Origin: a virus
Virus genome (UHGV): UHGV-0029496
Reading direction: 5' to 3' (one strand)
DNA length: 24,034 bases
The stretch's first letter is position 1; each line of letters starts with the position of its first letter. The notes beneath the pieces were generated by a model. It was not told where the DNA came from and searched no databases. It saw only the letters and a list, made by a program, of their open reading frames with translations. Positions 3,936 through 21,506 of the stretch are shown here, piece after piece. The position numbers were made by a program, and so were the translations under genes.

Positions 3936-5306
3936 TTAACCGTCCACATTAAAGTCGATACGAGTGATGTATTTACTACCCCACACGGAATCTGCCTGTG
4001 GAATAATGGCGTAATCATCTACAGCCGGAACGTTCACCATGGAGCCATCTGAATAGGCAATGTCGATACTTGTTGCGCCGTTCATTACTACTTTTGCTGA
4101 TGCCGTCGTGCGCGTTCCTGGTGACAATTCGGTTACTATCGGGGACGAGGCAAAGCCGCGTTTTTCTATTTGCGGATTGAAAACAATAATTCCGCTAATA
4201 CCATCTCCCTGAAATGAGCCGTTTGTTGCAGAGGCGTATAGCATAACCCTGTACTGAGCTGATAACGAAGATAGCCTCGATGCGTCGAAAGATATTGATA
4301 CAGACGCATAACCACCAAGATCCGCAATAGATGCCACTCCACCGAACGATGATTTGATAACTTTGCTATCAATGTCTGCAACAACAGATGCGACGTCAAA
4401 ATTATCCGAGTTTCTTATATATAATCTTAAAAAATCCAAACCATTACCAGCCGCTATGACGCTGAATGTAACATAATCTTCTGCATCTAATTGCATGTTT
4501 TGAGAAAAGTAATGAGACCCGCTGGTTGTAGTAGCGATCACTGAAAATATATCCGATGTAGCTTCTCTATTGACTGTGACGTTTGTTAGTGAAGAAGATG
4601 AAATGTCTCCTGAATTTATATAAAGATTTTCAGAATAATATTCTGGAGGCACCCGTCCGACAGCAACCCCATCGATAAACGTAAGGGGCCATTCATTTAC
4701 GGCGGACTGCACAAGATTACCGTTTCGGTTGATGTAATAAACCTGCGGCCCGTCATACACAATGCGACTATCCAGCGTGAGCGCCAGAAGGTTGATCGGC
4801 GGATAGCCGGCTGGCCCTTCATCGCTCCTGATGCGCGGGAACGTAGTCTCATAGTTCGCGTATACTTTCAGGAAACTACCCAGACAATCCCCGTAACAGC
4901 CATACAAATCTGGCAGATTCTTAGTAAGACATGTGTCTTCCTGAATTGCTGTGCGCTCTGCTGTAGCAGTAAACGTAATGACCCAGTTTTTACCGTCGTC
5001 TGTGCTATCGCTAATGTCGGACGTAATAAGAACCTTGTGGTCTTCGATACCTAAACCGGTATCATGAGGCATGATGAACGAAGATGCCCCGCCGTCTATG
5101 TTATTCAGGAAGCTATAGAAAGCCTGACGGCCTAGTGACGATACGACCAGGGTAACGCTAATAGGTACCGGTTCGAAGTATGTATCACGCCCCTGTCGAG
5201 GCACGCCACCTTGCACTTCTGTACGCCAGATATTACTCCCTCGCGTTTGGGAGTACCCCTTCGACACTATTGGTCGAAGGGACATAGGGAATCTCAAATC
5301 ACTCAT
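3936..5306 (-). CDS. Distal tail protein, gpM-like N-terminal domain with long C-terminal extension
   Basis: 456 aa directly after the tape measure gene; N-terminus has the GYSQ motif seen in lambda gpM (GDGYSQRAP); about 340 extra residues, partly encoded by a visibly AT-rich segment (about 4380-4700). Confidence 0.55.
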   Translation of the reverse strand: MSDLRFPMSLRPIVSKGYSQTRGSNIWRTEVQGGVPRQGRDTYFEPVPISVTLVVSSLGRQAFYSFLNNIDGGASSFIMPHDTGLGIEDHKVLITSDISDSTDDGKNWVITFTATAERTAIQEDTCLTKNLPDLYGCYGDCLGSFLKVYANYETTFPRIRSDEGPAGYPPINLLALTLDSRIVYDGPQVYYINRNGNLVQSAVNEWPLTFIDGVAVGRVPPEYYSENLYINSGDISSSSLTNVTVNREATSDIFSVIATTTSGSHYFSQNMQLDAEDYVTFSVIAAGNGLDFLRLYIRNSDNFDVASVVADIDSKVIKSSFGGVASIADLGGYASVSISFDASRLSSLSAQYRVMLYASATNGSFQGDGISGIIVFNPQIEKRGFASSPIVTELSPGTRTTASAKVVMNGATSIDIAYSDGSMVNVPAVDDYAIIPQADSVWGSKYITRIDFNVDG

Positions 5307-5309
5307 TGG

Positions 5310-7619
5310 TTAATACCCCGGCTGGTTTCGTGTAGCCCGGCGGGACTTGGAGATTGCACTGTTGCTGTCTTGTAACGCCGCCGATACTGTTTCACTGATG
5401 ATAACACGTAACCGCCCTTCGTCGTCACGCTCTGTAACGGCGGAATCAACTCGTCCGGTGGTGTTGTTGACGATTGTCACGCTGTCACCGCCTGACTTGT
5501 TGCCGTTCTCGCCCATAATCTGGCGCATTTGTTCGGCGGTACGGACGCGTGATGCCCCCGCTGGCATAATAACTTCAGGCTTGTTACGTTCGGCGATGGT
5601 GGATAGTTGCCCGGCGGCTAAGTTACCGCCCTGCTCACGAGCCGAACGAATCTTACCAATGTTCGCCAGACCTGCTGCTACCGCTGCCGCGGCAGCTACG
5701 GGGCCGAGTACCCATCCGACAATAGGAATCGCGGACGCAGATTTATAAGCCTCGATGGCGGAGGTGTATGTGGCTATTGTAGCCTGAGCAATAGCAAACG
5801 CTTTATACGCGCTAGACGCTTCACCAAGTGACGACTTAATATTGTCCGCCATCATGCCGAAAGCGTTACCCGTAGCGTTGGCGCGCTTCAAAGCATACTG
5901 GCCGTTTATCGCGTTAACCGCGGCCTGATACTGTTCCTCGTTTATAAGATTTTGTTCCCGGTACCGGTCTGCAACGTCCAGTTTTTGCTGTTCCTGAATC
6001 TCGAGAAGCTCAAGCTCAGCGGCATTCTGGCCCATAATCTGGGCCATGAAGTCTTCACCTTTCTGGTTCTTTTCCTGCCGTTCTTTCTCTCGCTTGGCGA
6101 GTTCTTCCTGGCGTGCGGTGTCCGCCTCCAGCATAATCTGAGTTTTGGCGTTTTCGTACTGCTGCTGGCTTATTGTTCCTGCTCGGTTGAACTCTTCGAG
6201 TTTCGCCAGTTTCTGTTCTTCCGCCGCGGTGATACGAGAAATTTCGTCTCCGGTTGTACGGTCAACCGTAGCTAGGAAATCTTCTGCGGCTTTCTTCTGG
6301 CGTTGTGCTGCCATTTCTTCACGTTTGGTCTGTGCCGCCAGACGTTCCTCGTTCGATTTAGCCTCTCGGTCGGCCTTCTCTTTCTCGGCCTTGTCAATGC
6401 GGGCGATGTCTTGCTGCGCTTCCGCGTCACGAGCGGCATTATACGCTGCAATCTGTTCTTTGGTGACGGCTTCACGTTTAGCGAACGCCTGTTTATCGAG
6501 TTCAGCTTGCGCCCGGATGCGCTCACGGTCACTTAGGATGGCGATTTGCTGGTTCTTAACAATGGCTTCGTTCTGTTCCTGGAATCTCTGCGTGGTTGAG
6601 TTGACGTTACGACCAAGATTCTTTTGAGCCTCCGCTGCCGCGTTTGCTGACTTCTCCGCGTTCTCCAGTGCCGTGGCGTTCTTGTTGGCATTGTCAGTAA
6701 GGCGTATAAGTTCCGGGTTCAACTGTTCCGTGTTACCTAGCCAGTCGGTGAACACATCGGCGATGCGACGGGCGTTCTCCGCGGTCGGCTCTTTGTTAAA
6801 CGCACTCTGCGCCGCTATCATCTCCAGCGCCTGGTCGCGGTTAACCCCGAACTTACTGCTAAGCTCCGCAATGTTCTGCGCCAGCATGTTGACGCCTACG
6901 ATATTACCCTCGTAAGTGCCGCCGAGTTTTTCTAACGTGTCGCCTACATCAACGCCCTTAGATACCAATGCATCATACTGGCTAATCGCCGATGCCGTGG
7001 ATGCTTTCCACGTTTCCCACGATTCTGCGTCCTCGCGAATGGCTTTAGCTGTTTGCTGCGCGATAAGGTCCGCGTTGGCCTTAGCTAGAGCAAGCTGAGT
7101 CTCCGCCGCTTCTCTGCTGATTTGGGTAAGCTGGATAAGGCCGTCTGTCAGTTCAAGAGAACCGGATGCCGTTTGCTGGAAAGTATCTTTTAACTGCTTC
7201 TGCGCAGCTTCGAGGTCTTTTGAACTGCCTTCTGCTTCGGTTAGCGATTTATACAGGACACCGCCAATTGCTGACGCAAGAGCAATTACAGCCCCAAGCA
7301 CCGCACCACCGGGGCCGAAAGCACCAGCAAGTTGGGAACCTTGCTGCCCTATCGCAACGAATGCAGACGTACCGGATTGCAACTGGACTACCATGTCCTG
7401 CACCTGGTAACCAACCTGCTCGGCGGCATTGCGGAACTTGGCAAAACCGTCGAACACGGCTTTAGACGTAGCGGAATTTACTTTATTAACATCCGGCGTT
7501 AGTTTGTTTACAGATGTGTCCGCCCGGTCTGCGGATGCCGCCATAGCGTCAAGCTGTTTAGCAGCTGCATCAGCGCCTTCTGTTTTTACTCTGGCAATTA
7601 GGGAAGCCGTATCAGCCAT
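5310..7619 (-). CDS. Tail tape measure protein
   Basis: Long Ala/Gln/Glu-rich alpha-helical ORF downstream of the G/T chaperone pair, with Gly-rich hydrophobic segments. Track start is TTG at 7634; first ATG is at 7619 (MADTASLIARVK...). Confidence 0.8.
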   Translation of the reverse strand: MADTASLIARVKTEGADAAAKQLDAMAASADRADTSVNKLTPDVNKVNSATSKAVFDGFAKFRNAAEQVGYQVQDMVVQLQSGTSAFVAIGQQGSQLAGAFGPGGAVLGAVIALASAIGGVLYKSLTEAEGSSKDLEAAQKQLKDTFQQTASGSLELTDGLIQLTQISREAAETQLALAKANADLIAQQTAKAIREDAESWETWKASTASAISQYDALVSKGVDVGDTLEKLGGTYEGNIVGVNMLAQNIAELSSKFGVNRDQALEMIAAQSAFNKEPTAENARRIADVFTDWLGNTEQLNPELIRLTDNANKNATALENAEKSANAAAEAQKNLGRNVNSTTQRFQEQNEAIVKNQQIAILSDRERIRAQAELDKQAFAKREAVTKEQIAAYNAARDAEAQQDIARIDKAEKEKADREAKSNEERLAAQTKREEMAAQRQKKAAEDFLATVDRTTGDEISRITAAEEQKLAKLEEFNRAGTISQQQYENAKTQIMLEADTARQEELAKREKERQEKNQKGEDFMAQIMGQNAAELELLEIQEQQKLDVADRYREQNLINEEQYQAAVNAINGQYALKRANATGNAFGMMADNIKSSLGEASSAYKAFAIAQATIATYTSAIEAYKSASAIPIVGWVLGPVAAAAAVAAGLANIGKIRSAREQGGNLAAGQLSTIAERNKPEVIMPAGASRVRTAEQMRQIMGENGNKSGGDSVTIVNNTTGRVDSAVTERDDEGRLRVIISETVSAALQDSNSAISKSRRATRNQPGY

Positions 7620-7983
7620 CTTCTCTGCCCTCAAATATTCCGTCTAAGCCCATGATAACCTCGGCTTCGAACAAACTTATGCCGTAACCGGCGACATCAC
7701 GAAACGCTACCAAATCTTGCCATTTGAGCGCATCGCGCGGGATTATAACGATAGTATCATCTGTTTCGCGCTGTAGGAATTTAATGGCACGGTATTTCTC
7801 GAACACGTCGATAAGAGAAACGGGGCATTCTGGCCCCGTCGCTTCTTTCATCTGCGGTTCTTTAATCACGCCCATTGCAATCAAAGCCGCCTGGTGCCCT
7901 GCCGCGATGTCGTCGAATTGCTTACGTTTGTGGCGGTCGACAAAGCACCATTGCGCAAACTCATACAGCGCTTTTACTTTTCC
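7612..7983 (-). CDS. Tail assembly chaperone -1 frameshift extension (gpT-like), expressed as a G-T fusion
   Basis: The -1 frame relative to the G ORF is open from 7998 to the stop at 7612-7614 and overlaps the last G codons; slip candidate G-GAA-AAG at 7977-7983 (minus strand) just before the G stop. Confidence 0.45.
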   Translation of the reverse strand, partial: GKVKALYEFAQWCFVDRHKRKQFDDIAAGHQAALIAMGVIKEPQMKEATGPECPVSLIDVFEKYRAIKFLQRETDDTIVIIPRDALKWQDLVAFRDVAGYGISLFEAEVIMGLDGIFEGREDG

Positions 7984-8390
7984 GAGAGTTTCTCGCGGCT
8001 ATCAGTATGGTGCTTAACTACGGCTTCTGCCAGTCCGCTGTACTGGTCAAACAGGTTAGCCAGCGCCTCTTTGCTGAACGGTTCGTCGAATGACCAACCG
8101 GTGACGATTTCCACGGCAAGCTGCTTGTTCAGGTCCATCACCCGCCAGCCCTTCTCATCGTTATAGCGCGCCCAGTTATTCAGTGCCTCGCACTCTTTAT
8201 CTAATGGCGCAAGTTCTTCCGTAAGGCGGCGAATTGCCGTTGTGTAGGCGCGGCCCGCACGAACACCCGCGTCACAATCGGGGCCAATGACCTGCAACCA
8301 TTCGCCGGAGTCCTTACCACTCGGCAGAAGGATAGGCATTTTAGTGCCGGCGGCGTGGCGGTCGGCAAAATAGAAATCAGAAAGTTTCAT
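7974..8390 (-). CDS. Tail assembly chaperone (gpG-like)
   Basis: 138 aa acidic protein immediately upstream of the tape measure gene; AAGGA SD before ATG 8390; followed by an overlapping -1 frame ORF. Confidence 0.55.
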   Translation of the reverse strand: MKLSDFYFADRHAAGTKMPILLPSGKDSGEWLQVIGPDCDAGVRAGRAYTTAIRRLTEELAPLDKECEALNNWARYNDEKGWRVMDLNKQLAVEIVTGWSFDEPFSKEALANLFDQYSGLAEAVVKHHTDSREKLSEK

Positions 8391-8482
8391 TCTTTAATCC
8401 TTTGGTTAAGAGGTTACGGGTTAAGGTTGACGCGCCAGACGGGAACCACCCGCTTTTCGTGTGCGACACTAGGCGCAAACTT

Positions 8483-8516
8483 ATTCTAGCACACTACTTG
8501 CACACCCCAATATAAT
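8483..8516. promoter_or_regulatory. Divergent promoter candidates in the 164-bp gap between the chaperone gene (minus) and the plus-strand cassette
   Basis: Plus strand: perfect TATAAT at 8511-8516, about 40 nt before ATG 8555, weak -35. Minus strand: TAGAAT (plus 8483-8488) with TTGGGG 16 nt upstream. Confidence 0.25.
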
Positions 8517-8554
8517 AGGGTACTATTCACCTGTAACTTACTGAGGAAATAATT

Positions 8555-8881
8555 ATGCGTAAATTAGTATTAGCTCTGGGGTTTATGTCTTTTGCGGCTT
8601 TTGGGTCCTCGTGCGAACAGGCATTTAGTGAATCTGTTCTTATGACTTCTGGTGTGCTTGAGAAAGCCGACCCTACTATTGTAAAGGCATTTAGGGACTC
8701 TACCGTTCGCGAGTGTGAGGCCGCCGTGGAGGTTGGTAAATCGGGCCTACCCCCGCAAGCCGTAACATACACGGTAATACGTTCGGTAGAGAAAAACGGA
8801 GATGCGTTTTACAGCCTACTGACAGCCACCCGTCTGCAAATGGTAATGACGGGTTGGGCAGTAGGCGCAGAAAGTAAATAG
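8555..8881 (+). CDS. Small secreted protein or possible lipoprotein
   Basis: GAGGAA SD 6 nt before ATG; N-terminus MRKLVLALGFMSFAAFGSSC is a classic signal peptide with Cys at 20 (non-canonical lipobox); three Cys in total. Confidence 0.6.
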   Translation: MRKLVLALGFMSFAAFGSSCEQAFSESVLMTSGVLEKADPTIVKAFRDSTVRECEAAVEVGKSGLPPQAVTYTVIRSVEKNGDAFYSLLTATRLQMVMTGWAVGAESK

Positions 8882-8945
8882 TTGCCTTTATTTAAAGAAC
8901 GCACTGTGGCTAAATAGGACAAATCCTAAACACGAGGAAGTAAGT

Positions 8946-10076
8946 ATGGCCCAGAAGAAAATAACCGACGAACAGTTACAGGAAGAATTGAACGCCGGGA
9001 TGAAGAATATCGACATCGCACGTAAATATGGCATCTCAGACCGCGTTATTCGTATCCGTAAAGCGAAGCTGGCTAAGAAAGGTGTAGGCCACGGGCGTGA
9101 CGTTAGTCACCTTGTGCCGGACGGTTACAAGATTAAAGGAACGTCGTCACTGGTGGACGAGTTCGGCAACACTAAGTTGCAATGGGTTAAGACCGACACC
9201 GATGCCGAACGTCAGGTCGAATTGATGAAAGCCGTAATCGAAGGAATGAAGTCAGAGATTACGCCAGTTGCGCCTGTTAAAGCCATTCGCGCTAAACGCG
9301 ATGACAAGCTACTTAATCTTTACACGGTATCTGATTTTCATCTCGGTATGCTGGCATGGGCGGATGAGAGCGGCGACGACTGGGATATGAAGATTGCGGA
9401 AGACCTGTTCTCCCGATGGTTCGACGCGGCATTCCAGAAAGCACCGGATGCAGGAACAGGAGTTATTAATCTGTTAGGTGACTTCGCACACTTTGATAGT
9501 CTTGATGCCGTTACGCCCGAGTCGTGCCATGTGCTAGACGCGGATACGCGCTACCAGAAACTTGTCCGCTACATGATTCGCATGGTCCGCCGTGTTGTTG
9601 ATATGGCGCTGGTTAAGCATAACACCGTAAAACTTTTAATCATTCAAGGTAACCACGACCCTGTCGGCTCCGTATGGCTGTCCGAAATGTTCTGCACATT
9701 GTATGACAACGAACCTCGCGTATTTGTGGACACCTCCCCCGACGTATACAAGATGGTTCAGCACGGGAAAACTACACTATTCATGCACCACGGACACCGT
9801 GCGAGATTCGACGCCATAGAGTCGGTAATGATTTCTAAATTCCGTAAGGCTTTCGGAGAAAGCACATACAGCTACGCCCACGTAGGCCACCTGCACCATC
9901 AGAAGATTGTAGAAAGCCGTAACATGATTGTTGAGCAACACCGCACCTTAGCGGCTAAAGACGCCTACGCCTCTCGCGGCGGATGGATGTCAGGCCGTAG
10001 CGCGAATGTAATTACTTATAGCGCCGAATATGGTGAGGTCGCTCGTTTAACTATTTCACCGGAGATGCTGGGATGA
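8946..10076 (+). CDS. HTH domain fused to a calcineurin-like metallophosphoesterase (Mre11/SbcD-like motifs)
   Basis: GAGGAAG SD; N-terminal HTH-like segment IDIARKYGISDRVIRIRKAKL; motifs DFHLG (DxH), GDFAHFD (GDxxD), GNHD, HHGH, GHLHH in the canonical order. Confidence 0.7.
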   Translation: MAQKKITDEQLQEELNAGMKNIDIARKYGISDRVIRIRKAKLAKKGVGHGRDVSHLVPDGYKIKGTSSLVDEFGNTKLQWVKTDTDAERQVELMKAVIEGMKSEITPVAPVKAIRAKRDDKLLNLYTVSDFHLGMLAWADESGDDWDMKIAEDLFSRWFDAAFQKAPDAGTGVINLLGDFAHFDSLDAVTPESCHVLDADTRYQKLVRYMIRMVRRVVDMALVKHNTVKLLIIQGNHDPVGSVWLSEMFCTLYDNEPRVFVDTSPDVYKMVQHGKTTLFMHHGHRARFDAIESVMISKFRKAFGESTYSYAHVGHLHHQKIVESRNMIVEQHRTLAAKDAYASRGGWMSGRSANVITYSAEYGEVARLTISPEMLG

Positions 10077-10303
10077 CTTCAAAATACAACCGCACAATGA
10101 CAAACACCCACGGCAGCACTATGACTGTAGACGTTTACGATGTTCTCCGTGCTTTCGACATCCGCGACCCAGCGCTACAGCACGCATTAAAGAAACTGCT
10201 GTGCATGGGCTTGCGTGGTCACAAGGACACCGGGACCGACTTAGCGGAAGCGATTGAAAGTCTGGAGAAGTTACAGGAATACCGGAGTAATATTGATGAG
10301 TAA
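10073..10303 (+). CDS. Small hypothetical protein, translationally coupled to the phosphoesterase gene
   Basis: ATG overlaps the upstream TGA (ATGA at 10073-10076); 76 aa, helical and charged (DPALQHALKKLL...DLAEAIESLEKLQE). Confidence 0.55.
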   Translation: MTSKYNRTMTNTHGSTMTVDVYDVLRAFDIRDPALQHALKKLLCMGLRGHKDTGTDLAEAIESLEKLQEYRSNIDE

Positions 10304-10451
10304 GAAAAAGCGAACCCCAAACAACAACAACAACAACGTCCCGTATACCCCGCTGCCGTTTCCAGAGCCTAACAAGCCCTCGCCGCTTATGTCGGACAAC
10401 GAATGGCGGCGGGTCGCCAGAATGACCATCCGCCTGAGAAGACTGGCTTGA
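10296..10451 (+). CDS. Small Asn/Pro-rich basic protein
   Basis: ATG 10296 with GGAG 9 nt upstream, overlapping the end of the previous ORF by 8 nt; 51 aa MSKKKRTPNNNNNNVPYTPLPFPEP...; contains the (AAC)6 tract. Confidence 0.4.
   Translation: MSKKKRTPNNNNNNVPYTPLPFPEPNKPSPLMSDNEWRRVARMTIRLRRLA
10320..10337 (+). repeat. Perfect trinucleotide microsatellite (AAC)6, in frame (Asn6)
   Basis: aacaacaacaacaacaac read directly. Confidence 0.9.
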
Positions 10452-10463
10452 CCGATAAATAGT

Positions 10464-10483
10464 AAGGCCCTGAAAGGGGCCTT
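10464..10483 (+). terminator. GC-rich hairpin after the three-gene operon (weak terminator or attenuator)
   Basis: aaggccc-tgaaag-gggcctt, 7-bp stem, no clear U-tract. Confidence 0.3.
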
Positions 10484-10496
10484 ATCGCAACAGGAG

Positions 10497-10991
10497 ATGA
10501 TTATGGACTGGAATGAATTTTTCATATACGACTTAATTTCAGGAAGGATATTTAACAGAGTAACACGTTCCGGGAGGGCTAAGGCTGGAGAGGAGGCAGG
10601 TACGGTACAGCGAGACGGATATAGAAGGATATTTTTCAGGGGTAAATGGCACGCGGCGCACCGTATAGCTTGGGACTTAAACAATACTAACAATAAGCTA
10701 ACCTCGTCAGATCAAATAGACCATCTAGACCATAACCGAATAAACAATAGGCCGCTTAACTTAGCTAAAAAGTCCAATGCGGAAAACCATAAAAATATGT
10801 CAAAACAGCGTAATAATAAATCAGGAGTAACCGGGGTTTACTGGAACGCGAAAGAAAGGTTGTGGTACGCACAGATATTCAACAATAACGTAAAAACACA
10901 CATCGGGTGCTTTAAAACGCTACTAGATGCAGTTGCCGCAAGGAGAGTTGCTGAAAGAGATTTAGGGTTCCACGAGAACCACGGTAAATAG
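10497..10991 (+). CDS. HNH homing endonuclease with C-terminal AP2-like DNA-binding domain
   Basis: HNH core AHRIAWDL...IDHLDHNRINNRPLNL; C-terminal GVTGVYWNAKERLWYAQI...IGCFKTLLDAVAARR is AP2-like; Asn-rich and AT-rich codon usage unlike neighbours. AGGAG abuts ATG 10497, so ATG 10503 may be the true start. Confidence 0.75.
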   Translation: MIMDWNEFFIYDLISGRIFNRVTRSGRAKAGEEAGTVQRDGYRRIFFRGKWHAAHRIAWDLNNTNNKLTSSDQIDHLDHNRINNRPLNLAKKSNAENHKNMSKQRNNKSGVTGVYWNAKERLWYAQIFNNNVKTHIGCFKTLLDAVAARRVAERDLGFHENHGK

Positions 10992-10992
10992 T

Positions 10993-11016
10993 AAGGCCCC
11001 TTTCGGGGCCTTTTCC
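10993..11016. terminator. Bidirectional rho-independent terminator between convergent genes
   Basis: aaggcccc-tttc-ggggcctt followed by ttttcc on the plus strand; also U-rich on the minus strand. Sits between the plus HNH stop (10991) and the minus major tail stop (11017). Confidence 0.7.
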
Positions 11017-12183
11017 TTACGCGTAGCTAATACGCTGTATTACAATAGAAGATTGATATTGATTGCCTGTGGACTGTCCTTCTATGCTCTGAGTTATTGA
11101 TTCTGGCCCCCCAATCTCTGGTGTAACCGCCGTAAGTTCTGCGCGTTTCAGGCTGAAAGACATAGCCCCGTTTACCCCGGCCAGAATAGAGTTAATCTCC
11201 ACCTGCTGTTCGTTGATAAACTTCTGAATCATCACCATGTCGTACAGCTTGCCGGAGATAGAGAAGGTGTTAGCCGCGCGACCACGTTCCACGAACGCAA
11301 CGCTACTGTTGCCGAGTTCGAACTGTGCGGAAGCACCGTTGTCGTTGGTGATGGTCAGAGTATCGCAACGCAACGGCGTAGAGCCGTCGAACACAGACAC
11401 ATCTACAGATGAGAACGGCTCATCGGTAAACGTCACCTGAGAGAAATCAGAGCCTGCTGGCGGTGCGGTAAGAATCTCCTGACTCAGGCCGATGAACGGG
11501 AAGCTGCCAGTTACCATAGCGTTAACCGCCTGCTCTACGGTGAAGCCGGAGATTTCCACGCCTTTGGTGAGCATATACGCGTCCGGGTTGCCGCACTGGC
11601 CCTTGAACCACGTCAGGATGGAGAACGTCTTACATGCGTTACCGGTTTCCAGCTTGTCACCCGTTTTTGCGTCAGTGGTTACTGTCTCAGCCGTTAGCGT
11701 GTGCTGAATGCCAGCACCCGTAACTACCAGAGCGGAAACCGCAGTTACGATGAACGGTTTGGCGTTGTCGCCGGTTAAGCCGGTGAACGCAATCAGGTCG
11801 CCAACTTCTACGCCGTCAGTGACGAAGCTACCCGCCGCGCGAGTGAACGTCTTGCCAGTTGGCTCTACAGTGATGGACGCGCCCGTAATTTCTGCCCCAG
11901 CCTGCCATGTAGAAGTCATCGCGCCTGCAAGGAAATCATCCTGGCTACGGGAGCTAAGTTCAATAGCATACTCCCCGCTAACCTGCTTGTTACCGGTTCG
12001 GATGGATGTAGTTTCACGGCTGCCGTCGAGTTCGTTGGAAGTAAGCGCATCGCGGGTTACGGCAGGAACGCCGCCAGTGTTACGCAACGGTGACCATACC
12101 GGGTTAGTCGGTGTTACGCCCGGGGTAGTTTCCGCCACATAGAATTGCGCGGTATTCGCGCCCTTAAAAGGAGTTGTAGCCAT
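11017..12183 (-). CDS. Major tail (tube) protein
   Basis: 388 aa Thr/Gly/Ser-rich beta-type protein after the neck genes; AAGAGG SD before ATG 12183 (track start is GTG 12189); TGAATATG junction with the upstream gene. Confidence 0.6.
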   Translation of the reverse strand: MATTPFKGANTAQFYVAETTPGVTPTNPVWSPLRNTGGVPAVTRDALTSNELDGSRETTSIRTGNKQVSGEYAIELSSRSQDDFLAGAMTSTWQAGAEITGASITVEPTGKTFTRAAGSFVTDGVEVGDLIAFTGLTGDNAKPFIVTAVSALVVTGAGIQHTLTAETVTTDAKTGDKLETGNACKTFSILTWFKGQCGNPDAYMLTKGVEISGFTVEQAVNAMVTGSFPFIGLSQEILTAPPAGSDFSQVTFTDEPFSSVDVSVFDGSTPLRCDTLTITNDNGASAQFELGNSSVAFVERGRAANTFSISGKLYDMVMIQKFINEQQVEINSILAGVNGAMSFSLKRAELTAVTPEIGGPESITQSIEGQSTGNQYQSSIVIQRISYA

Positions 12184-12185
12184 AT

Positions 12186-12602
12186 TCACAGCCTCTTGGT
12201 GAATGCAATAAAGTTAATAGACAATGGTCGTTTGGCCCATCCGTTCTCTACAATCAGCGGCCCCAGGCTAACCGATTGAACCTCGGCGCAGATGTCGTTA
12301 CGTGAAAATGACTTACCTGCTTTAAACGCCGTGTTAAGTAAGTCTGCCATTTTATTGATTGGCGCGCTACCTTTCACCGATGCGTAGTTAATGTCAACCT
12401 GATAAATACCTGAGCGTTGTTCCGTGAAGAACAAATCAGCCTGCTCGGTATCCGCAAGTAACATGTAACTTGCCAGATACGGAGTATCGGTTGACGTCGG
12501 CGCGTCGATGTTTTCAAGCGCGACCTTGATGCCGTTGGTGGTTCCGAAGGCTACCAGTGGCACATCGAACGCTTTTGTTAAGTCCTCAAAGTAGCCCATC
12601 AT
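12186..12602 (-). CDS. Neck protein, tail-terminator-like by position
   Basis: 138 aa; start overlaps upstream stop (ATGATGA); immediately upstream of the major tail gene. Confidence 0.4.
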   Translation of the reverse strand: MMGYFEDLTKAFDVPLVAFGTTNGIKVALENIDAPTSTDTPYLASYMLLADTEQADLFFTEQRSGIYQVDINYASVKGSAPINKMADLLNTAFKAGKSFSRNDICAEVQSVSLGPLIVENGWAKRPLSINFIAFTKRL

Positions 12603-17433: not shown

Positions 17434-17457
17434 GTTTCTCCTTTCTCGATAAGTAAA

Positions 17458-17477
17458 GCCCCGCCTTAAAGCGGGGC
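17458..17477 (-). promoter_or_regulatory. Hairpin in the 5' leader just upstream of the Rz-like RBS
   Basis: gccccgc-cttaaa-gcggggc (7-bp stem), followed on the minus strand by UUUACUUAUCG and then the SD. Confidence 0.35.
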
Positions 17478-17656
17478 GCTAGTCCTTATCATTTAAACAT
17501 AGAAACGGCGTAATCTCAGTAAACCAGTTACTTTTTACACAAGCAATAGACTATGGCCCTTCCGAACGCGTCAGCGACACTACACTCAGTGCTAACGCAC
17601 CGCTCCGTTCTCCTGCCGCGCCGCGGTCGCTTGTTCATACTTCACAAGCTCAGGTG

Positions 17657-17685
17657 GAGCTTATCATATTTTTAGTGAAAAGTCA
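17657..17685 (-). promoter_or_regulatory. Sigma70-like promoter candidate driving minus-strand genes
   Basis: Minus strand TTGACT (plus 17680-17685), 17-nt spacer, TGaTAAGCT extended -10 (plus 17657-17662). Confidence 0.3.
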
Positions 17686-17691
17686 ACTATT

Positions 17692-17710
17692 CGAATAGTT
17701 TATTCCAACA
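17692..17710 (-). repeat. Copy B of the repeated intergenic motif, 6 nt upstream of the TTGACT -35 candidate
   Basis: See copy A; core ttattccaacat at plus 17699-17710. Confidence 0.5.
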
Positions 17711-17744
17711 TTTACAATTGAGGGGAATAACTGGAATAATCACA

Positions 17745-17770
17745 GGCATTAAAAAGCCCCTTTCGGGGCT
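17745..17770 (-). terminator. Rho-independent terminator after the Ig-like gene
   Basis: aagcccc-tttc-ggggctt (7-bp stem) followed on the minus strand by UUUUAAUG; starts 6 nt after the stop codon. Confidence 0.7.
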
Positions 17771-17775
17771 TCAGT

Positions 17776-20835: not shown

Positions 20836-21450
20836 TTACTCCGTAGTTAGTTTACGATATACAGCCGCGCACTTTCGCCCGCAGGTGACACGAGGTTTAT
20901 AGCGGTTATGCTCGTGAGTAGCGCCGCAGACGGGGCATATAGCTGTTACGTTATCTACCCCCGAAGCCCGTCTATGTGCCGCTAAGCATCTTTTAGAACA
21001 AAAACAATTCTCGCCCTTTGTCGGTATGGCCGTAAACTCTTTGTTGCAATAAGAGCATATTTTTTCAACCTTAACGTGAAGTTTGTCTTTTGTGGCTTCG
21101 TAATGTGCCTTATGCCACTGCCGGCCTGCTTCACTGGCGTGCCACTCTTTAGTTAAATGCTGGTGCTTGCGGCCCATTTCGGCCGACCTGGCACGCGCTT
21201 CATCAGTAGAGAAATGCAGATAGCTATGGTCTGACGCCGAAAGCATCTCTAGGTTTTCTATTTGATTATTTGAGCGGTCTTCGTCTTTATGGTGGATGTC
21301 ATACCCTTCTGGGATTTCCCCGTTGAAATATGACCATACAACTCTGTGCAACCTTTTAACAATTGATGAGTTCATAAAATAGTTACCACACAAATAGTAA
21401 CGCGTACCGTTAAATTCTTGGATTGTTGGGGATATAACTTTTACTCGCAT
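20836..21450 (-). CDS. HNH endonuclease with C-terminal Cys-rich zinc-ribbon region
   Basis: HNH core YDIHHKDEDRSNNQIENLEMLSASDHSYLH; Cys clusters CSYCNKEF, CFCSKRC, CPVCGATHEH, CGRKC. Track start is TTG 21477; ATG 21450 follows an AGGAGG SD. Confidence 0.8.
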   Translation of the reverse strand: MRVKVISPTIQEFNGTRYYLCGNYFMNSSIVKRLHRVVWSYFNGEIPEGYDIHHKDEDRSNNQIENLEMLSASDHSYLHFSTDEARARSAEMGRKHQHLTKEWHASEAGRQWHKAHYEATKDKLHVKVEKICSYCNKEFTAIPTKGENCFCSKRCLAAHRRASGVDNVTAICPVCGATHEHNRYKPRVTCGRKCAAVYRKLTTE

Positions 21451-21506
21451 ATAGCCTCCTGATTGTTTACCTGACAATATCAGTAAGACCGATGCGAGTA
21501 AATACG

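Follow-up and report, generated by a model that had tools for sequence, protein, structure and literature searches.

Gene blocks on the strand opposite to the structural genes are present in the tail module of published Guernseyvirinae genomes, e.g., K1H (ORF15-18), XY2, Bas70-76, KMB36, STP03, NBSal007 and AH01. Here, we describe the corresponding block of the UHGV virus genome UHGV-0029496, of which a stretch of 24,034 nucleotides was analysed (the window in the following). The block, termed the cassette, extends from position 8391 to 11016 and agrees with the published ones in its junction, orientation, promoter, leader element and closing hairpin. It differs from them in its combination of genes, which encode a signal-peptide protein (sigP), a protein with a helix-turn-helix (HTH) and a metallophosphoesterase domain (HTH-MPE, or MPE for short), two small proteins (p76 and p51) and an HNH homing endonuclease. 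No experimental study of the cassette genes was found in the searchable literature. For the phosphoesterase, the closest described relatives are T1 gp16 and further members of phrog_704, annotated as 'DNA repair exonuclease'. These are full-length homologues of approximately 380 aa that combine HTH and MPE, with an identity to the window protein of 41-46% in Drexlerviridae and 73% in Dhillonvirus. As in the window, the MPE gene of T1 is followed by a terminator and then by an HNH gene; unlike in the window, the MPE gene of T1-like phages and Dhillonvirus is not part of the tail module but has lysis or packaging genes as its neighbours, with which it shares the strand. T1 and TLS, which both carry MPE homologues, degrade the host chromosome, and the responsible gene is unassigned (PMC11447400). 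In T5, host DNA is degraded through the protein A1, which is both necessary and sufficient for this process and is a putative metallophosphatase with Mre11/proofreading-like features (bioRxiv 10.64898/2026.04.02.716235).

We conclude that the cassette was not acquired recently as an island and does not constitute a new system of defence or anti-defence; it is an ordinary, lineage-typical accessory operon together with a mobile endonuclease. The favoured explanation, to which we assign a probability of roughly 65%, is a lineage-wide non-structural operon of the Guernseyvirinae that is driven by a host promoter and comprises an exclusion protein, a DNA-binding nuclease and a homing endonuclease. 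A bolder version, which we put forward only tentatively and as a possibility of lesser weight, holds that the HTH-MPE of the T1 gp16 family would destroy the host chromosome and recycle its nucleotides in T1-like phages, Dhillonvirus and Guernseyvirinae, as an Mre11-like nuclease acting alone, with its own DNA-binding HTH replacing Rad50, and thus as a functional analogue of T5 A1. The cassette would then represent an early 'takeover' operon that excludes rivals, degrades host DNA and feeds nucleotides, timed against tail assembly by a divergent promoter and an int-alpA leader.

The initial annotation, made from the letters of the window, had described five opposite-strand genes inside the tail module. 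This is borne out by the listing of open reading frames (ORFs), which shows five consecutive plus-strand ORFs (8555-10991) between the chaperone gene (7974-8390) and the tail tube gene (11017-12189), and by family matches. All five proteins match phage protein families of the PHROGs collection and are therefore the products of real genes. The identities given to the HTH-metallophosphoesterase and the HNH endonuclease agree with domain and family matches, the signal-peptide protein has the expected n/h/c shape as read from its sequence, and the coupling of the two small genes is visible at the sequence level. That the cassette is non-structural, with its own promoter and terminator, is likewise supported by sequence evidence.

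An opposite-strand cassette with an HTH-phosphoesterase gene is located at the exact tube/chaperone junction in all 11 Guernseyvirinae genomes inspected, namely those of the Escherichia phages XY2, K1H, NTEC3, fFiEco02, Bas71, VIPECOTPH05A, hz69 and KMB36, the Salmonella phages STP03 and NBSal007 and the Pantoea phage AH01. Phages of Escherichia, Salmonella and Pantoea share one core order (a small exported or membrane protein, then the HTH-metallophosphoesterase, then small ORFs or nucleotide enzymes), and what turns over is the 3' end. This core is more conserved than the tail genes: the phosphoesterase shares 85% protein identity with STP03, compared with 73% for the tube and 62% for the chaperone protein, and the respective values for AH01 are 80%, 71% and 58%. 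Its composition is native. For sigP, MPE and p76, the GC content (0.49-0.50), the codon adaptation index (CAI, 0.73-0.80) and the tetranucleotide content are all inside the range of the structural genes. The only outlier in the cassette is the HNH gene, with the lowest GC content (0.418) and the lowest CAI (0.627) of all genes in the window.

It was suggested initially that the cassette is a moron or hotspot island with host-interaction or anti-defence functions, and a candidate for an undescribed system. In the light of the above data, a recently acquired island in which five genes form one unit and provide a new host-interaction or anti-defence system is unlikely. Parts of the suggestion stand: the cassette has its own promoter and terminator, its 3' end is highly variable, the tube and chaperone genes are contiguous in Vibrio phage 1.132.O (tube 33% identical), and two unrelated genes fill the same antisense slot in Shewanella phage 3/49 (tube 68% identical). 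An exchange of alleles is also suggested by NBSal007, in which a phosphoesterase only 55% identical to that of the window stands beside a p76 with 89% identity. The recent or private insertion does not stand, since all 11 relatives carry the cassette. In these relatives the junction is occupied throughout, and a moron should be absent from closely related phages, whereas here the cassette is absent or different only in the distant Shewanella 3/49 and Vibrio 1.132.O. What is conserved is a block at a fixed position, yet not one with a structural role. Moreover, the five genes do not travel together, as their numbers of phage records differ widely (sigP 99, MPE 2,007, p76 774, HNH segment 6), and MPE alone occurs at other positions in Dhillonvirus and T1-like phages. 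No cassette protein matches a defence-system model of PADLOC-DB beyond a weak 'homing endonuclease' hit of the HNH protein (E 0.0011), and nothing indicates an anti-defence function, for which no dedicated protein library was searched. NCBIfam gave no informative match for the cassette proteins. The term undescribed is not appropriate either, since the cassette genes are already annotated, though uncharacterised, in hundreds of public genomes.

To judge by these comparisons, the junction is an old accessory slot, the core content of which is fixed within Guernseyvirinae. In T1, a terminator directly follows the major tail gene, which suggests why this junction tolerates an antisense unit. The slot of Shewanella phage 3/49 (5710-6281) encodes a 60-aa protein with a single transmembrane segment and a 129-aa protein of phrog_18768. 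Only the 3' end of the cassette is a hotspot. Downstream of MPE, p76 alone is present in XY2, Bas71 and STP03, and an extra ORF of 66 aa in hz69, fFiEco02, VIPECOTPH05A and KMB36, with hz69 lacking an HNH gene. In K1H (5174-6213), p76 is replaced by a phosphatase of the HAD family, PNKP type, and a deoxynucleoside monophosphate (dNMP) kinase; AH01 (5831-6316) carries a protein of 161 aa that contains a D...EAK motif and is annotated as nuclease, and NBSal007 a Rha/Ant protein. HNH genes are found in the relatives at three different positions and on either strand. Nucleic-acid or nucleotide enzymes thus recur downstream of the phosphoesterase (K1H, AH01).

The HNH gene of the window (10497-10991, plus strand) encodes a predicted free-standing homing endonuclease of 164 aa, which matches phrog_99 (E 4.7e-49) and 11 other HNH PHROGs and scores 21.4 bits with Pfam HNH_3, just under the gathering threshold of 24.8. 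The catalytic residues DH...N...N are visible in IDHLDHNRINNRPLNL, and the C-terminus holds an AP2-like DNA-binding region with a weak AP2 match. This is in good agreement with the T4 mob-type and I-HmuI-like HNH-AP2 enzymes, which share the HNH_3 motif, the AP2-like C-terminus, the intergenic site next to a conserved gene, the patchiness and the low GC content. According to megablast, 248 phage records match the surrounding 3.4-kb region (7900-11300), while the HNH segment (10464-11020) is present in five other records only, with 96-98.7% identity. KMB36 and 536P11 carry the same HNH gene at the same site (98% nucleotide identity); it is absent from the closest genome, hz69, and from XY2. A direct repeat of 34 nt (10453-10486 and 10982-11015, 79% identical) brackets the gene and duplicates the terminator. 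Compared with XY2, the window has an insertion of approximately 690 bp, which comprises p51, the HNH gene and one copy of the hairpin and immediately precedes the original hairpin. Low GC content and CAI, patchy distribution and a flanking repeat are the signature of a free-standing homing endonuclease, and by these sequence features the HNH gene is probably a recent mobile insertion. HNH genes also lie beside the MPE gene in T1 (40822-42510), NTEC3, NBSal007 and fFiEco02, as in the window, at different positions and on different strands. This repeated neighbourhood suggests the MPE gene as a recurrent homing target.

The first terminator copy (10463-10484), upstream of the HNH gene, has a folding energy of -17.6 kcal/mol with a z-score of -4.3 on the plus strand and was called terminator-like on the minus strand by a scanner. 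The closing hairpin (10993-11016) is shared with the tail tube gene. It consists of an 8-bp G+C stem (10993-11000/11005-11012) with the loop UUUC, followed by UUUUCCUU; the hairpin itself (10993-11012) folds with -15.4 kcal/mol on the plus and -16.8 kcal/mol on the minus strand (z -1.8 and -2.2). It is kept in XY2, K1H and VIPECOTPH05A, with a U-run on either strand in XY2. The HNH insertion has weakened the minus-strand tail of the window hairpin. The hairpin is real and conserved, but its earlier description as a strong bidirectional terminator is generous, given the z-scores, the short U-tracts and the fact that the consensus scanner did not call it.

The core gene of the cassette is that of the HTH-MPE (8946-10076, plus strand; 376 aa; phrog_704, E 3e-163). 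Its product comprises an HTH at approximately residues 8-44, a beta-hairpin and helix (61-100) and the MPE domain (approximately 119-376). The five metal motifs (DxH, GD, GNH(D/E), H and GHxH) are represented by D130-x-H132, G178-D179, N236-H237-D238, H282 and G314-H315-x-H317, and show no variation in either of two alignments, with 42 and 67 family members. The Pfam models Metallophos and Metallophos_2 are matched below their gathering thresholds (18.7 vs 21.5 and 22.2 vs 27 bits), and precomputed tables list PF12850 or PF00149 for some close homologues. Homologues also carry N-terminal HTH Pfam families; the HTH resembles those of LuxR/GerE, Fis and sigma-70 region 4 types. An AlphaFold model reached a pLDDT of 82.6 with the alignment of 67 sequences and of 38.6 from the single sequence. 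The model has a predicted beta-sandwich MPE fold, the nearest folds being Mre11, SbcD, PolD DP1 and the small subunit of Pol delta; a BFVD fold search returned only unnamed phage proteins or such named 'DNA polymerase II small subunit'. Searches of the PDB by sequence, with single cassette proteins as well as with family profiles, gave nothing significant, and this includes the similarity of MPE to chains of Mre11, SbcD and PolD DP1. Compared with these three, the window protein has no identified capping domain and no Rad50/SbcC ATPase or polymerase partner nearby, and has its own HTH instead. From motifs and model, we infer that MPE is probably a DNA-binding, metal-dependent two-metal nuclease.

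Homologues of the same length are found in 2,007 phage records and form 4,490 clusters at 50% identity. They occur in Drexlerviridae (T1 gp16), Dhillonvirus and in Vibrio, Rhodobacter and Campylobacter phages; within Kagunavirus, MPE is 94% identical. No functional study was found in the literature on the phosphoesterase of Kagunavirus, Drexlerviridae and Jerseyvirus. The metallophosphatases mentioned in the Metis and 'conserved folds' preprints are other proteins. Homology of the MPE family to T5 A1 is not claimed, as only the stretch around motif III aligns (GNHD-x3-S-x-WL, 21-31 columns; hmmsearch 3-4 bits). T5 A1 is also different in its length of 556 aa, its N-terminal half, the absence of an HTH match and its expression from first-step-transfer DNA.

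A nuclease is not the only activity to be considered for a metallophosphoesterase. The protein might be a 2',3'-cyclic phosphodiesterase or 3'-phosphatase that heals nucleic-acid ends and, together with a kinase/phosphatase, mends tRNA or DNA after cleavage by anticodon nucleases of the host or by restriction, in analogy to T4 Pnk/Rnl1 and bacterial Pnkp. In bacterial Pnkp, the phosphatase is indeed a calcineurin-type MPE, and downstream of the MPE gene K1H, G AB-2017 and fTaEco03 encode a HAD PNKP-type phosphatase (PF25109, E 7e-20; phrog_415, 'polynucleotide kinase') together with a P-loop kinase. However, the P-loop protein matches dNMP kinase (phrog_139 in K1H) rather than polynucleotide kinase, no ligase was found, and both extra genes are missing from the window and from most relatives. 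A distance of 35 kb separates the pnk-like gene of T1 from its MPE gene. Since the HTH DNA-binding domain and the nearest folds, Mre11 and DP1, also argue for DNA, we consider the repair of ends very unlikely.

The first slot of the cassette is occupied by sigP (8555-8881, plus strand), a protein of 108 aa that matches phrog_14165 (E 9e-53). The N-terminus, MRKLVLALGFMSFAAFG followed by SS, shows the classic n/h/c shape of a signal peptide, from which export via Sec is predicted. The cysteines C20 and C54 are conserved, and the C-terminus is highly conserved. No match was obtained in Pfam, NCBIfam, PADLOC or the PDB, and this includes the Pfam model Imm_superinfect (PF14373). The family is restricted to 99 phage records, all of Guernseyvirinae type, with 93-94% identity within Kagunavirus; AH01 has a distant, weakly matching member in slot 1. 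In NBSal007, KMB36 and approximately 270 other Guernseyvirinae records, the same slot contains a T4 Imm-like protein. For NBSal007, the match to PF14373 has an E-value of 2.3e-15, and the Imm-like protein occurs in 982 records, T-even phages included. The slot thus always holds a small exported or membrane protein, i.e., sigP, Imm_superinfect or, in Shewanella 3/49, the 60-aa single-transmembrane protein. Since this envelope protein often is a known exclusion protein, exclusion is the best guess for sigP, which from its position is a candidate periplasmic superinfection-exclusion protein. In its small size and predicted periplasmic export it resembles T4 Spackle, and an Imm_superinfect protein occupies the very same place in many Guernseyvirinae, although known exclusion proteins have no detectable sequence similarity to sigP.

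The two small ORFs follow the phosphoesterase gene. The product of p76 (10073-10303, plus strand; 76 aa) matches the C-terminal approximately 70 positions of phrog_2452 and of five other PHROGs. Homologues were found in 774 phage records, where they often form small separate genes of early regions; within Kagunavirus the identity is 99%, and a PDB search gave no match. As some of the matched PHROG C-termini belong to an 'ATPase', p76 was considered as a remnant of the K1H ATPase, and this was rejected because the two share no similarity. The ORF p51 (10296-10451, plus strand) encodes 51 aa from its ATG, is basic and of low complexity (MSKKKRTPNNNNNNVPY...) and matches phrog_17117 (E 4e-13). 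It is not found in XY2, Bas71 and K1H, has the second lowest CAI in the window (0.665), and is a variable accessory ORF. The start of p76 overlaps the stop of MPE (ATGA, 10073-10076) and the start of p51 overlaps p76 by 8 nt (10296-10303), which fits translational coupling.

The region between the chaperone gene and sigP (8391-8554) had been described as a divergent promoter-like region, and this is supported by a pair of predicted promoters, arranged back to back, which is conserved among Guernseyvirinae of three host groups; the region also holds an RNA motif. A sigma-70-type promoter is predicted for the cassette at 8498-8526 on the plus strand, with the -35 box TTGCAC (8498-8503), a spacer of 17 nt and the -10 box TACTAT (8521-8526). 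The predicted start is located at approximately 8533 and the ribosome-binding site GAGGAA at 8543-8548. This promoter reads TTGCAC-17-TACTAT in Kagunavirus, TTGCGC-17-TATTAT in Jerseyvirus and TTGCAC-17-TAGTAT in Pantoea phage AH01, i.e., the Guernseyvirinae of Escherichia, Salmonella and Pantoea agree in the hexamers and in the spacing of 17 nt, although their spacer sequences are fully diverged. The consensus scanner missed it because the -35 box matches only 3 of 6 positions. On the minus strand, a candidate promoter of the chaperone and tape-measure genes (8483-8510) consists of the -35 box TTGGGG (8510-8505), a 16-nt spacer and an extended -10 box TGC-TAGAAT, present as TGCTAGAAT at 8491-8483. 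Its predicted start, approximately 8476, is the first base of the RNA motif. The pattern TGnTAGAAT is found in all Kagunavirus contigs and in Pantoea phage AH01 (TGATAGAAT), and Salmonella phages have TGCTATTCT. The promoter scanner reported a second minus-strand match to the consensus, GTTACA-17-TATATT (8537-8509).

The position of the HTH-MPE gene near these overlapping back-to-back promoters and the conserved leader, together with an N-terminal HTH like that of LuxR/GerE, Fis and sigma-70 region 4, could point to a transcription regulator that mainly switches between expression of the cassette and of the chaperone/tape-measure genes. Two facts make this highly improbable. The HTH-MPE architecture is kept in approximately 2,000 phages with other neighbours and no such intergenic region, and all catalytic metal ligands are invariant, which implies selection for enzyme activity.

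The RNA motif between the two start regions (8432-8476, minus strand) is a structured element with similarity to Rfam RF02996, the int-alpA RNA motif, and consists of an outer stem of 5-6 bp around two hairpins. In cmscan, the window element scores 27.7 bits compared with a gathering threshold of 35.8 (E 3.7e-4 when the 181-nt region is searched, 0.049 for the whole window). The element is present at the same place in 8 of 8 relatives scanned. Bas71 and VIPECOTPH05A score 35.8 bits, exactly the gathering score, and such sequences may therefore already be part of the Rfam family. When eight sequences from phages infecting three host genera were folded jointly with RNAalifold, the same 15 base pairs were obtained, and 4 of these show compensatory changes. 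Searching viral contigs for the core of the motif yielded approximately 40 Kagunavirus copies, which are invariant in the motif and added no covariation; the covariation comes from the Salmonella and Pantoea phages. The window element has the same three-stem architecture as the RF02996 consensus, and the unpaired CUAG, CGAAAA and CUG are identical. Unlike RF02996, it is not located beside int and alpA, its neighbours being the chaperone gene and the cassette, and it lacks the U-rich 3' tail of the consensus, in place of which AACC repeats and the start of the chaperone gene are found. Other viral contigs of IMG/VR carry cores similar to CGAAAAGCGGG-N5-CCCGCCUGGG with different flanks; these may be int-alpA-type elements in unrelated phages or prophages.

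The element is predicted to form the leader of the chaperone/tape-measure transcript. The downstream part of this leader (8398-8428, minus strand) has four AACC repeats (8428-8425, 8422-8419, 8415-8412 and 8407-8404) and the Shine-Dalgarno sequence AAGGA (8402-8398). No variation between Escherichia, Salmonella and Pantoea phages is seen in the last three repeats and in UAACCAAAGG, in contrast to the bases in between; counted as (U)UAACC between the RNA motif and the Shine-Dalgarno sequence (8398-8431), three to five copies are present in Kagunavirus contigs. AACCA is complementary to the invariant hairpin loop UGGUU, which hints at a pseudoknot or at an array of protein-binding sites close to the ribosome-binding site.

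Implementing all facts, the lineage-wide non-structural operon may work as follows. The cassette sits antisense at the one natural break of the tail operon, after the terminator of the tail tube gene, where host RNA polymerase would transcribe it apart from the late tail genes, probably early. The product of sigP would be directed to the envelope and exclude superinfecting phages, as may the T4 Imm-like protein in the slot of sister phages. HTH-MPE would bind DNA via its N-terminal HTH and cut it via an intact two-metal active site of Mre11/SbcD type. Its role would be in phage DNA metabolism, most plausibly in the breakdown of the host chromosome with recycling of nucleotides, or else in the processing of recombination ends, for which T4 gp46/47 and T5 A1 may serve as precedents. 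p76 and p51 would be translationally coupled passengers. The HNH gene probably inserted beside the conserved MPE gene, thereby duplicating the terminator, and would spread by cutting HNH-less genomes in co-infections.

Several points weigh against this explanation. In Dhillonvirus and Drexlerviridae, the MPE gene adjoins lysis or packaging genes, an arrangement compatible with a late role no less than with an early one, and we infer both the timing and even the activity of the cassette promoter from its sequence. The kinase and phosphatase genes that suggest a nucleotide theme are absent from the window, and no gene for a Rad50/SbcC partner was found in the cassette or the 24-kb window. The hhalign probability for MPE family and T5 A1 is 18.6% (profile against the single A1 sequence) or 22.5% and 39.6% (profile against profile). 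Finally, neither sequence comparison nor the PDB search relates sigP to Imm, Spackle, Cor or Llp, and its exclusion role is argued from positional replacement. A hidden structural or assembly role of the cassette proteins in the tail, to which only the position points, is extremely improbable given the opposite strand and own promoter, the features of enzymes and of an exported protein, the location of homologues away from structural modules in other phage families, and a first slot interchangeable with unrelated proteins.

With respect to the window as a whole, the closest phages are members of Kagunavirus (Guernseyvirinae, siphoviruses of E. coli), with approximately 90% identity in megablast of 7900-11300 as well as of the whole window, and by this similarity the window belongs to a Kagunavirus. 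The best whole-window match is phage hz69 (90.4% identity across 91%, megablast); no record spans more than 80% of the 3.4-kb region in the megablast search. On the minus strand, the genes are ordered as small and large terminase, portal, capsid, neck, tail tube, chaperones, tape measure and distal tail proteins. The left flank of the cassette is the gene of tail assembly chaperone G (7974-8390, minus strand; Pfam Phage_TAC_4, E 1e-8; phrog_15027), followed by the frameshift extension T (7612-7884, minus strand; Phage_TAC_18, E 3e-18); in K1H and fFiEco02, G and T are annotated as a joined frameshift product. The right flank is the tail tube (major tail) protein (11017-12189, minus strand; Phage_tube_2, E 3e-35), found in 595 phage records by tblastn.

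In hz69, the rest of the corresponding stretch is all on the minus strand except for one ORF of 55 aa. This plus-strand ORF lies in the gap that corresponds to 17434-17775 of the window, a stretch of approximately 340 bp that is flanked by two structural genes and devoid of minus-strand ORFs. A second HNH_3 homing endonuclease gene (20836-21477, minus strand; 213 aa; Pfam E 1e-18; GC content 0.45) separates the portal and large terminase genes, which directly adjoin in hz69.

From a biological point of view, the cassette itself matters little, as it is a further example of a gene block known from hundreds of deposited Guernseyvirinae genomes, with a further insertion of a homing endonuclease. 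What is of residual interest is the role of a widespread phage phosphoesterase, the site at which exclusion genes are swapped and the new context of the int-alpA motif. Few uncharacterised enzymes of small lytic siphophages are as widespread as the HTH-MPE, which is a concrete candidate for the host-DNA-degrading activity of T1-like phages. T1 mutants in host degradation show improved generalised transduction. The first slot looks like a swap site for superinfection-exclusion proteins, which makes the orphan family of 99 members testable. The int-alpA motif, which is without an assigned function, gains a defined context as leader of a chaperone gene transcript, followed by invariant AACC repeats.

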